Shown piece by piece: positions 46,197-57,969 of a DNA stretch of 64,000 nt. Under the pieces are notes generated by a model that ran no database searches, was not told the origin of the DNA, and was given only the letters and a program-made list of their open reading frames with translations. The stretch's first letter is position 1. Each line of letters opens with the position of its first letter. The stretch lies in assembly GCF_056746865.1 (NCBI RefSeq), contig NZ_CM163382.1; one strand, written 5' to 3'. Position numbers and translations under genes: made by a program.

Positions 46197-46213
46197 TTCT
46201 TACGCCTGTAGGA
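46197..46213. promoter_or_regulatory. EvgA-box-like inverted repeat in emrK-evgA divergent promoter
   Basis: TTCTTACGCCTGTAGGA: half-sites TTCTTAC / GTAGGAA-like, same architecture as the boxes at 56186 and 57216. Confidence 0.55.
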
Positions 46214-52936: not shown

Positions 52937-54631
52937 TTAATTACCAGCGACTTGTTTTGGGTTAAGTTTGGTAATATGGCCACTTTCAGTTCCTGCTGCA
53001 GGGTCGATGACCACATTAATAATGGTCGGTTTGCGCGACTGAATACCGGTGGTTAAAGCATGACGAAGTTCATCTGTCGTAGTGACGTTATAGCCAACGC
53101 CACGAAACGCATCCATTAATTTGTCATACCTTGCATGGTGCAATAGATCTGTTGGTGATGGTGCACCAGCGCCACTGAGATCAACACCGTCTCCTCTGTA
53201 GATGCCGCCATTATTAAAAATAACGATCGTCACCGGCAGGTTATATCGACAAATCGTTTCAATCTCCATCCCACTGAAGCCAAAAGCACTATCACCTTCA
53301 ATGGCGACAACCGGAGAACCAGAGGTCACGCTAGCACCGATGGCATAGCCCATACCGATGCCCATGACACCCCAGGTACCACAATCCAGACGGCGACGTG
53401 GTTTATACATATCAATAATATTTCGTGCATTATCCAGGGTATTTGCACCTTCATTAACTAAATAAATATCCTGGTTCTCGCGCAATACATCGCGCACAGC
53501 ACTTAATGCATTAAAGTAATTTAATGGTTGAGTATCTGTACTTAATTTTTCATGCATTTTTTGTGCATTTTGCTGCTTGTGGATATTTAAAATATCGCGC
53601 CATACCAGTGGAGTCGTAAATGTGTTTTGTTTCAGTTCTGCCAGCATACCTTGCATACTGGATGCAATATCGCCAACGACTGGCACAGCAATGGGGCGGT
53701 TGCTGTCAATTTCCTGCGGTTCAATATCCAGTTGAATAAACTGTGTATCTGCCGCCCATCCTTTTTTACCGTGTGCCAGTAACCAATTCAGTCGTGCACC
53801 AACAAGCATGACAACGTCAGCATTTGCCAGGGCAAACGAACGCGCAGTTGCCGCAGAAAGTGGATGTGTATCTTCGAGGATCCCTTTCGCCATAGACATT
53901 GGCAGGAATGGAATCTGGGCACTTTCAATAAATTCACGAAGCTGTTCATCCGCTTGTGAATACGCCGCGCCTTTGCCAAGGATAACTAATGGTCGTTCAG
54001 CTTTTGCTAAAAGCGAAATTGCGCTAGCGACTGACTTCGGGCATGGCAATAATGCTGGCGACGGATTTTCAACTTTTACAATCGTGGTTAACGCTTCGTC
54101 TTTTTCCATCGTCGCGGCCAGGACATTTGCAGGCAAATCAAGATAAACTCCGCCAGGGCGACCCGATACTGAGACCCGGATAGCGCGTGCCAATGCAATG
54201 CCAAGATCCTGCGGCTGATTAACGCGAAATGCTGCTTTGGCATACGGTTTTGCCGCATTCATTTGGTCCAGCTCTTCATAATCACCTTGCTGTAGGTCGA
54301 CGATCGCGCGGTCGCTGGAGCCGCTAATCATGATCATCGGAAAACCATTTACCGTTGCGTTGGCCAATGCGGTCAAACCATTGAGGAATCCTGGCGCAGA
54401 AACTGTCAGGCAGATCCCCGGTTTTTGGGTAAGAAAACCGCTTGCCGCAGCGGCATAGCCTGCCGACTGCTCATGACGAAAACCAATATAACGAATGCCT
54501 TCCGCCTGGGCATGGCGTGCCATATCCGTCACAGGAATACCTACAACACCATAAATAGTGTCAATATCATTCTGTTTTAATGCTTCAACGATGATATGCA
54601 TACCATCTGTCATTTGAAGTTGATCTGACAT
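52937..54631 (-). CDS. oxc: Oxalyl-CoA decarboxylase (ThDP-dependent)
   Basis: 564-aa ORF with ThDP-binding region ([31 protein letters not shown]). Confidence 0.92.
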
Positions 54632-54684: not shown

Positions 54685-55935
54685 TCAGATGGCGTGGTTT
54701 TGCTTCATTGCAGCAATTTCATCGTCGCTATAACCCAGCTCCTGCAATACAGCAGCGGTATGTTCACCTAATAGCGGCGCAGCTTTAATATCCGGCGTAA
54801 AGGCAGAGAATTTCATTGGACAACCAACTGTCAGATATTTTCCACGCAACGGTTGTTCCACTTCAACAACACTGCCACTTTGGCGCAAAGAGGGATCAAG
54901 TGAAATTTCTTTCATACTTAAAACCGGTGCACAAGGAATATCAAACTGAGTCAAATAGGCCACCGCTTCATGTTTATCAATAGTGACAGTGTATTTTTCG
55001 ATTTCAGCAAAAATATCGAAAATATGTGGCTGTCGGGCATGGGCTGTACTGTATGCCGGATCGGTAATCCAATCTGGTTTGCCGATGGCTTTACAGGTGT
55101 TTTCCCAGTTTTGCTCCTGAATAGTGAAATAAATATAGGCGTTAGGATCGGTTTCCCAGCCTTTACATTTCAGGATCCAGCCAGGCTGACCGCCACCACC
55201 CGCATTACCTCCGCGGGGAACTGCATCACCAAATGTGCCATTCGGATACTGCGGGTATTCTTCCAGATAACCCAATTTATCGAGACGCTGCTGGTCGCGT
55301 AATTTCACGCGGCAAAGGTTCAATACGGCATCCTGCATTGACATGGTGACTCGTTGCCCACGCCCCGTTTTTTCACGATGCAGCAAAGCAGCAAGTAAAC
55401 CGATCAGTAAATGCATTCCGGTGTTGCTGTCACCCAACGCTGCAGCGCTTACCAGCGGCGGACCGTCCCAAAAACCCGTAGTGGATGCCGCGCCACCCGC
55501 TGCCTGAGCAACGTTTTCATAGGCTTTTACATTCACATAAGGCGAACACTCATCAAACCCTTTGATCGAACCAAAAATCAGACGTGGATTGATTTCTTGA
55601 ATATGCTCCCAGGTGAAGCCCATGTGATCAATAGCCCCAGGATGAAAGTTCTCGACTAAGATATCAGCTTCGCGGATCAGCTTTTCCATTACCTCTTTGC
55701 CTTCCGCTGTTTTGGTATTTAATTCAATAGAACGTTTGTTACTGTTAAGCATGGTGAAGTAAAGCGCATCGATATCAGGAATATCTCGCAGCTGGTGACG
55801 CGTTACGTCACCAACGCCGGGACGTTCAATTTTAATGACGTCAGCGCCAAACCAGGCCAGCATTTGAGTACAAGATGGGCCAGATTGCACACCGGTGAAA
55901 TCGAGAACTTTAATTCCTTGAAGTGGAGTTGACAT
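54685..55935 (-). CDS. frc: Formyl-CoA:oxalate CoA-transferase
   Basis: 416-aa [46 protein letters not shown], family III CoA-transferase. Confidence 0.92.
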
Positions 55936-56203: not shown

Positions 56204-56446
56204 GCGCCGGTGATTTACAAGTAAGGGTATGATTACGCTTTTTAAAGCGTACCATAAAACATAACATAATAAATGATTTGTGATGACACGGGATTATTGC
56301 GGTTTACTTTGAGGAAGATAAAATGCGAGTTTATAGAACCGCGAGCGCCAAATAATTTTATGACCACAATCTGTCGTATTGTGGTCATAAAAAATTGTCG
56401 GCTGGAGGGAGTTAAATCCTTTACCTCAATATACTGCCTGTCAGCA

Positions 56447-57079
56447 TTAGTTCACAAACAGTGCTTCGCTATCGACGATGATTCCATCTTCCGCACCTTT
56501 AAGCGCCAGGTTTGCCTCGTAGTATTGCTTTTTATCAAGCAGTTTCTGCGCATCAGCAAGTGCATTACGAGTCTGTTTGAGCGGCATCAGATATTGGTTT
56601 TCCATTACGCCAACACCGGCCAGGCGAAGCTCTTCCATTGCGCCCTTTTTATCCCCTTTCGCCATTTTTTCGTTGGCAATTTTTATCGCGGCTTCTTTTT
56701 CGGGTGTCGCTACATAACTCTCAGAAATTCCGATAGATGCATTAATGACAATATATTGGTCATCATTGACATTGGTTTTTTTTCCTGGCTTAGCGAACTT
56801 TGCCCATTCGGTACTGTCATCTGACAACAAAGCTGAAGCTTCATTGGTCAGTTCTTTTGCCTTTTCCGGATCGCCATGAAACAGAGCCAGGCGCGCTACC
56901 TGCACGTCACGCATCGCATATAAACCTTGTTCAGAGATACGCTCTGCTGCTGCCGTTTTCTGGGTTTGCTGAACTTGCTGAGTTTGCTGTTGTGCCGCTA
57001 CCGGTGCATTATCAGCCGCCCATACAGTTGAAGATGCCAGAATTGCTGTGACCATCGTAGCCATAATTAAACGTTTCAT
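56447..57079 (-). CDS. yfdX: YfdX-family periplasmic protein
   Basis: 210-aa ORF with signal peptide [21 protein letters not shown]; first gene of the yfdX-frc-oxc-yfdV-yfdE cluster. Confidence 0.88.
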
Positions 57080-57176
57080 ACTTACCTCATTCTTTAACAG
57101 TTTTAGAAAACGCCGCCATCATATTGGGTGAGTATGAAATGAGAAATCAGAGAGCAACGGTCATTTTGAAAGGGTT

Positions 57177-57232
57177 ATCTTACAGTTGTAGTTATTATCG
57201 CAAGAAGTATTTTAGTCTTACAATTGTAGGAA
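57177..57232. promoter_or_regulatory. Two EvgA-box-like inverted repeats upstream of yfdX
   Basis: TCTTACAGTTGTAG (57177-57190) and TCTTACAATTGTAGGAA (57216-57232), 100-150 bp upstream of yfdX. Confidence 0.5.
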
Positions 57233-57374
57233 TATGCTTCCTGTCACAGAGAACTATTCTTATATACCAAAAAGAGATGTCATTTATTATATCGATGTAA
57301 ATACTGATTAATTATATGTAAATACAGCAATAACGTCGTAGGTTTTCAGTGAACCATTTTCAGGATAACTTTCT

Positions 57375-57650
57375 ATGAAAGTAAACTTAATGCTTTTTAG
57401 CTTATTTTTATTGGTCTCTATTATGGCATGCAATGTTTTTGCATTTTCTATTTCTGGTGGTGGTAGTGAGGCGAGCTATAAAGAGACGGAAAAAACGTCA
57501 GCGATGACGACCACACACTCTACAAAACTTCAGCCATCACAGGCGATTTTGTTTAAGATGAGAGAAGATGCGCCACCATTAAATCTCACAGAAGACATTA
57601 CGCCCCCTTTTTCGACAAAGGCGAATTATCTTATTCATCCTGTGCGATAG
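57375..57650 (+). CDS. ypdI: Small lipoprotein/secreted protein YpdI
   Basis: 91-aa ORF with signal peptide MKVNLMLFSLFLLVSIMACNVFA. Confidence 0.75.
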   Translation: MKVNLMLFSLFLLVSIMACNVFAFSISGGGSEASYKETEKTSAMTTTHSTKLQPSQAILFKMREDAPPLNLTEDITPPFSTKANYLIHPVR

Positions 57651-57726: not shown

Positions 57727-57969
57727 CTACCGCCTGCCATAGCCCACCATAAAGCGAATCATCAAGCCACAAGCCGGGGCAAGAAATATAAATATCCCCG
57801 TCACCAGTTCATTACCGCCAGTTAACCACATGGTGAAGTAATAAATGAGTGCAGCGAGGATCACCATGCCGAAGAAAGAAGAGACCGCCGATACCACGTT
57901 CAGGACCTGACCAATGTAGCCGCTTACGCAGACAATACACAGGGCGAGAAACATCCATAAATAAATCAT
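57727..57969 (-). CDS. yfdY: Small inner-membrane protein YfdY
   Basis: 80-aa two-TM ORF MIYLWMFLALCIVCVSGYIGQVLNVV. Confidence 0.75.
   Translation of the reverse strand: MIYLWMFLALCIVCVSGYIGQVLNVVSAVSSFFGMVILAALIYYFTMWLTGGNELVTGIFIFLAPACGLMIRFMVGYGRR

Follow-up and report, generated by a model that had tools for sequence, protein, structure and literature searches.

EvgS responds to mild acid by phosphorylating EvgA, which binds inverted repeats as a dimer. The locus studied here, the spacer between the divergent genes yfdX and ypdI of E. coli, shares with the E. coli EvgA regulon (emrK/evgA, ydeP, safA-ydeO, yegR, frc, and yfdX) an 18-bp inverted repeat, a fixed box-N25-TCYKMT-N21/22-TAnnnT layout, and mild-acid, EvgS-dependent induction of its genes. 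The other promoters of the regulon that we examined carry one box (at most two mismatches), whereas the yfdX/ypdI spacer carries two, each facing a different gene, and the number of boxes at this locus varies among strains. PMC3720670, citing Masuda & Church 2003, reports EvgA binding to inverted repeats upstream of yfdX and yfdWUVE; since the repeat at yfdX is already published, the EvgA site at yfdX is established and the core of the finding is known.

Like yfdX and ypdI, evgA and emrK form a divergent pair with EvgA binding in their common spacer (PMC5573083). That spacer holds a single box, at position 46197 of the window (the 64,000-nucleotide stretch of DNA analyzed here), with the canonical layout towards emrK only, the evgA side being devoid of TCYKMT; the yfdX/ypdI spacer, in contrast, provides a box of its own for each direction. 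A single activator site shared by both genes, of the evgA/emrK type, is thus not what we found, as two boxes are present and each is canonical in one direction only.

BvgS is the closest homologue of EvgS (PMC5573083), and the EvgA half-site core TTCCTA/TAGGAA resembles the heptad in TAAGAAATTTCCTA of the BvgA promoters (Bordetella Pfha and Pptx). As here, BvgA promoters have their strongest site furthest upstream and an element abutting the -35 region (PMC7250471). However, BvgA dimers lie 22 bp apart on one DNA face (PMC7250471), while the yfdX/ypdI boxes are 38 bp apart, and the half-sites here are oriented the other way relative to each other, with 6 nt between them. Given this 38-bp spacing, with just a half-site-like element abutting the -35 region, the locus does not have the makeup of a BvgA-type multi-dimer array. 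We favor, with a probability of about 60%, the view that the spacer consists of two back-to-back EvgA-dependent promoters, box 1 serving yfdX and box 2 serving ypdI. This reading draws on the motif matches, shared layout, and conservation demonstrated here and on the co-induction of ypdI in published data.

Two EvgA boxes between yfdX and ypdI

The window comes from an E. coli strain that is not K-12 and has ~97% identity with most strains; its 2-kb yfdX/ypdI region was matched by 5,423 of 5,426 complete E. coli genomes. Within the spacer, the MG1655 coordinate is the window coordinate plus 2,437,323, and both boxes are identical in sequence in MG1655. The genes and boxes are the following.

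52937-54631, minus strand: oxc (ORF calls, RefSeq annotation of matching genomes, Pfam)
54685-55935, minus strand: frc (yfdW) (ORF calls, RefSeq annotation of matching genomes, Pfam)
56447-57079, minus strand: yfdX, known EvgA-induced periplasmic protein (ORF calls, RefSeq annotation, Pfam YfdX)
57177-57194, no strand: box 1, yfdX-proximal EvgA box ATCTTACAGTTGTAGTTA, 3 mismatches against the consensus, matrix score 14.7
57215-57232, no strand: box 2, ypdI-proximal EvgA box GTCTTACAATTGTAGGAA, 1 mismatch against the consensus, matrix score 19.0
57375-57650, plus strand: ypdI, 91-aa lipoprotein (ORF calls, RefSeq annotation)
57727-57969, minus strand: yfdY (ORF calls, RefSeq annotation of matching genomes, Pfam)

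The divergent yfdX and ypdI genes are separated by 295 bp (57080-57374), the length given in a previous, sequence-only reading of this DNA, which had also placed two related, EvgA-box-like inverted repeats in the spacer, 40 bp apart. Both repeats are present where it had located them (TCTTACAGTTGTAG at 57178-57191 and TCTTACAATTGTAGGAA at 57216-57232); the spacing needs correction, to 38 bp from one start to the next, which leaves 20 bp between the two 18-mers. The description as inverted repeats holds for box 2, a fair palindrome and the only one of the two boxes reported by our repeat search, and only weakly for box 1, a dyad with perfect symmetry in TACA/TGTA only (4 of 8 arm positions pair).

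Both boxes match the EvgA box consensus TTCYTACA-N2-TGTARGAA, an 18-bp inverted repeat. Scanning the 64 kb with TTCYTACANNTGTARGAA and up to 3 mismatches yielded four matches, namely, the emrK/evgA box (46197), the frc box (56186), box 1, and box 2, against 0.58 expected; four matches were reached in 0 of 100 shuffles. The PWM scan proposed as a check was run with a matrix trained on five sites (emrK/evgA, frc, safA, ydeP, and yegR, all K-12 loci), from which the yfdX boxes were left out. Box 2 scored 19.0 and box 1 14.7, ranks 6 and 7 of 92,951 positions, directly under the five training sites, and the top background score over these positions, 12.25, was below both. Consensus and matrix matches, conservation, and published EvgA binding upstream of yfdX (PMC3720670) thus support the identification of the repeats as EvgA boxes. 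Chance similarity in AT-rich intergenic DNA is a very improbable origin for the pair: box 1 alone, with its 3 mismatches and weak dyad symmetry, might be taken for such a match, but only ~0.003 matches are expected per 295 bp (scaled from the 64-kb scan) against the two observed, both boxes score above all background, and they are kept at equal spacing in another genus.

An Rfam search of the spacer returned no family, and no GAD box was found in it. Beyond the spacer, a strong hairpin (ATGACCACAAT...ATTGTGGTCAT) occupies 56352-56398, 49 bp downstream of the end of yfdX and ahead of the EvgA box of frc. Its sub-threshold miRNA match in Rfam is spurious, and it is probably a terminator between yfdX and the frc operon.

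YpdI had no Pfam family match, and its occurrence is restricted to Escherichia and Shigella. A search for distant homologues, aimed at whether an EvgA box travels with ypdI, gave four divergent YpdI-like candidates (46-67% identity), the encoding DNA of which is E. coli-like (mean column identity, 95%). Since at least three of the four reflect a one-base change in an early T-run, they were rejected as genuine homologues. Many YpdI variants in databases are truncated (50-60 aa) or frameshifted, and three metagenomic contigs show a one-T difference in the early ypdI T-run (window ~57400-57412). Such truncations and frameshifts may be sequencing errors, or they may point to ypdI decay or phase variation in some lineages.

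Promoter layout on either side of the boxes

For the layout analysis, each known EvgA-dependent promoter was anchored on its box and read towards its gene. The TCYKMT pattern is post hoc, drawn after inspection of the sequences, but from the six known promoters alone, and box-N25-TCYKMT-N21/22-TAnnnT is found in all six. Their elements (offset 26-31) and -10-like hexamers (offset 53/54-59) are as follows.

yfdX (box 1): TCTGAT, then TATGAT
frc: TCTGAT, then TATTCT
emrK: TCCTCT, then TAAATT
safA: TCCTAT, then TATATT
ydeP: TCTTAT, then TAATTT
yegR: TCCTAT, then TATTAT

Towards ypdI, box 2 is followed by N25-TCTTAT (offset 26-31)-N21-TATTAT (offset 53-58), a mirror image of the yfdX side. Box 1 displays the layout towards yfdX only and box 2 towards ypdI only. 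The element was absent from all seven control orientations (box 2 read towards yfdX and box 1 towards ypdI, the emrK box read towards evgA, and the boxes of frc, safA, ydeP, and yegR read away from their genes). Under the pattern derived from these six, TCYKMT would occur at the exact ypdI-side offset by chance with a probability of 0.0016-0.0024, or of ~1e-4 together with the -10 hexamer. Positions +9/+10 after the box read CA in all known EvgA promoters but CT on the ypdI side. The elements of the spacer are listed below.

57118-57123, minus strand: predicted yfdX -10 TATGAT (promoter scan TTCTCA-16-TATGAT)
57146-57151, minus strand: TCTGAT promoter-proximal element, 25 nt after box 1, at ~-40 to -35
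57195-57203, no strand: inter-box block TTATCGCAA (TTGCGATAA on the yfdX strand), extended -10-like TGcGATAAT
57258-57263, plus strand: TCTTAT promoter-proximal element, 25 nt after box 2, facing ypdI
57285-57290, plus strand: predicted ypdI -10 TATTAT, offset 53-58, as in other EvgA promoters

The yfdX transcript is predicted to start near 57111 (MG1655 ~2494434), which would place the centers of box 1 and box 2 at ~-74.5 and ~-112.5, respectively. The predicted ypdI start lies near 57297 (MG1655 ~2494620), giving a leader of ~78 nt with box 2 ~74 bp upstream. No start sites were found at 24944xx-24946xx in the Cappable-seq supplement.

The promoter-proximal element resembles the EvgA half-site core, and on the ypdI side the 8-mer TTCTTATA (57257-57264) shares 7 of its 8 bases with that half-site. 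The element lies 42 bp, ~4 helical turns, from the equivalent position in the distal half-site of its own box. Judged from its sequence, it may be an EvgA half-site or just a -35-adjacent promoter element. The spacing between box 1 and box 2 (38 bp) corresponds to ~3.6 helical turns, so that the boxes are out of phase, on different DNA faces. Tandem cooperative binding, as suggested by the earlier reading, would therefore not be the best interpretation of this geometry, in which each box appears phased with its own promoter.

The promoter scan also returned, on the minus strand at 57194-57223, TTGTAA-18-GATAAT with an extended TG, the -35 of which is inside box 2 while the -10 abuts box 1. This may be a second, EvgA-occluded promoter or a piece of an extended EvgA footprint. 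The predicted ypdI -10/start region contains an imperfect 28-bp palindrome (57280-57307, centered on ATCGAT, with 13 of 17 arm positions pairing) and a direct repeat of 21 bp (57286-57304 and 57307-57325), both copies of which include TGTAAATA, a 6/8 match to the EvgA half-site. Among 11 E. coli alleles, TGTAAATA is invariant in the first copy and varies at one base (57318) in the second. The palindrome and repeat (57280-57325) could represent an operator for another regulator. In a genomic SELEX study, RNA polymerase holoenzymes with two minor sigma factors gave peaks within or adjoining the yfdX/ypdI spacer (PMC5493296).

Expression of ypdI and conservation of the spacer

Co-regulation of ypdI with yfdX, raised in the sequence-only reading, finds support in three independent published expression datasets together with the canonical EvgA layout facing ypdI, from which we infer direct control. 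In a constitutive evgS S600I mutant, the log2 value is 2.75 for ypdI (P = 0.013), next to 6.97 for yfdX, 7.75 for yegR, and 8.37 for frc (PMC4283999 Table S4). At pH 5.8, ypdI mRNA reaches 10.5, 9.7, and 13.1 rpkm, about 10-fold the ~1.1 rpkm measured at pH 7.6 (PMC10746267 Table S3); it is ~2.9 rpkm at pH 4.4, and the log2 value for yfdX mRNA at pH 5.8 is 5.23 (PMC10746267). Upon glutathione exposure, ypdI rises 5.5-fold and yfdX 9.8-fold, with ydeO, yegR, and emrK also up (PMC5811628).

The induction of ypdI is much weaker than that of yfdX, and ypdI ribosome footprints do not rise at pH 5.8, the ypdI level staying low (PMC10746267). The evgS mutant table includes many indirect targets, no new EvgA sites were found among the induced genes by the authors (PMC4283999), and the induction of ypdI could be indirect, via YdeO or GadE. 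Our literature search for EvgA ChIP, DAP, or SELEX data or an EvgA iModulon gave nothing usable. Masuda and Church reportedly listed, in 2003, seven directly regulated operons, ypdI not being among them, and to our knowledge ypdI is not listed as a direct EvgA target; it is probably a target so far unrecognized.

Of the 32 half-site positions, 2 vary across 11 E. coli alleles, compared with 3 of the 4 central Ns and 52 of the other 259 spacer positions (Fisher p = 0.039). The box half-sites are invariant except at the box 1 edge positions 57177 and 57193, and TCTGAT, TATGAT, TCTTAT, and TATTAT are all invariant. The inter-box block 57195-57203 does not vary in these alleles or in Yersinia vastinensis, and positions 57204-57210, also between the boxes, are hypervariable. 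The window has a T at 57133 that is absent from the 10 other aligned E. coli alleles and from 4 extra contigs; on the yfdX strand, it turns the hexamer 13 nt upstream of the predicted TATGAT from CATGCT into CATACT, which looks more like a -10.

Box number itself varies through one segment of the spacer.

57178-57215, no strand: 38-bp unit, tandemly duplicated in some strains (3- or 4-box alleles)

The duplication generates a chimeric middle box, TCTTACAATTGTAGTTA, and a junction 40-mer diagnostic of at least 3 boxes is carried by 414 (7.6%) of the 5,426 complete E. coli genomes, IAI1 among them. Strain 573 has 3 boxes (locus positions 159-248) and strain IBS28 has 4 (locus positions 172-299). 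The distances from box 1 to the yfdX promoter and from the last box to the ypdI promoter are left unchanged, and the duplication is compatible with every regulatory model. A recent duplication as the source of the two-box state was considered and rejected, since the units show no similarity outside a 14-bp core.

Our YfdX scan of species-representative genomes gave E. coli, Y. vastinensis (83% identity), and six Buttiauxella (~58%). Both boxes are present in Y. vastinensis with the 38-bp spacing kept, as is the frc box; similarity to E. coli stops ~25 bp past box 2, and ypdI and TCTTAT are absent. Box 2 is changed there at 5 of 18 positions, and weakened, and box 1 at 2 of 18, a difference that counts in favor of back-to-back promoters. 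Most Buttiauxella yfdX loci have a single box (e.g., TTCTGACATATGTAAGAC), which aligns with box 1 and is followed by N25-TCTGAT-N22-TATTCT. On the yfdX side, TCTGAT is invariant in the three genera 25 nt after the box, with TATGAT/TATTCT 22 nt further. No EvgA homologue was found within 3 kb of yfdX in the Yersinia and Buttiauxella loci.

Possible roles of box 2 and implications

In the back-to-back arrangement that we favor, EvgA would occupy each box. Box 1 would be the canonical activating site for yfdX, followed by TCTGAT at ~-40 to -35 and by the -10 TATGAT, and box 2 would drive ypdI from a promoter predicted to be weak and EvgA-dependent. In addition, box 2 may increase the binding of EvgA to the weaker box 1; such cooperative help for yfdX is compatible with back-to-back promoters, the two readings not being exclusive. 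It is possible, though a good deal less probable, that both boxes act together at yfdX as a cooperative tandem array, in which box 2, strong and distal, recruits EvgA and helps to load the weak proximal box 1, with ypdI induction being indirect or incidental. The contrast between a poor box 1 (3 mismatches, 14.7) and a strong box 2 (19.0) fits such an array, reminiscent of BvgA promoters with their high-affinity site furthest upstream (PMC7250471), and yfdX is among the genes most strongly induced by EvgA. Moreover, both boxes are kept 38 bp apart in Y. vastinensis without ypdI; this survival of box 2 fits a role at yfdX and counts against back-to-back promoters, although the change of box 2 in Yersinia is close to the neutral rate. 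However, 38 bp (~3.6 turns) is unlike the 22-bp same-face spacing of BvgA dimers (PMC7250471), a single box suffices at other EvgA promoters and at Buttiauxella yfdX, and an array for yfdX would leave the exact N25-TCTTAT-N21-TATTAT layout towards ypdI unexplained.

We regard it as quite unlikely that box 2, or the DNA flanking it, mainly serves a different regulator of the NarL/FixJ family, such as RcsB, or that it has no function and is a by-product of the process that duplicates the 38-bp unit. GAAGCATATTCCTA (minus strand, 57227-57240), which overlaps the ypdI-side half of box 2, has 2 mismatches in 14 positions against the RcsAB box TAAGAATATTCCTA, a match made notable by the link of YpdI to Rcs and colanic acid and by the control of yfdX by RcsB in Klebsiella (PMC6394985). 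The 38-bp unit, for its part, does duplicate in natural strains. Yet the EvgA half-site supplies half of the RcsAB-like match, the remaining 5/7 matches having a p of ~0.01-0.05; the lack of relatedness of the units outside their 14-bp core speaks against a by-product of recent duplication, and the half-sites of box 2 are invariant in E. coli.

The EvgA site at yfdX is textbook-level knowledge, the EvgA repeat upstream of this gene being known; what seems new here is the promoter layout, and the details added would be modestly useful if confirmed. A rigid box-promoter geometry, with a second conserved element by the -35 region, would then be common to all EvgA promoters, and such rigidity would constrain the contact between EvgA and RNA polymerase. 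The natural variation in box copy number offers ready alleles for testing box number against output.

A wider proposal, which we consider unlikely, is that ypdI is a direct EvgA target with a dedicated box, that YpdI connects EvgS acid sensing to the Rcs/colanic-acid pathway, in parallel with SafA, which links EvgS to PhoQ, and that 2-, 3-, and 4-box alleles tune the output. YpdI overproduction leads to RcsF-independent mucoidy, as stated in bioRxiv 10.1101/2024.08.29.610257, citing Potrykus & Wegrzyn 2004, and YpdI is on this account a speculative EvgS-to-Rcs connector. If confirmed, the arrangement described here would add ypdI to the few direct EvgA targets and hint at a link between acid sensing and capsule/Rcs.
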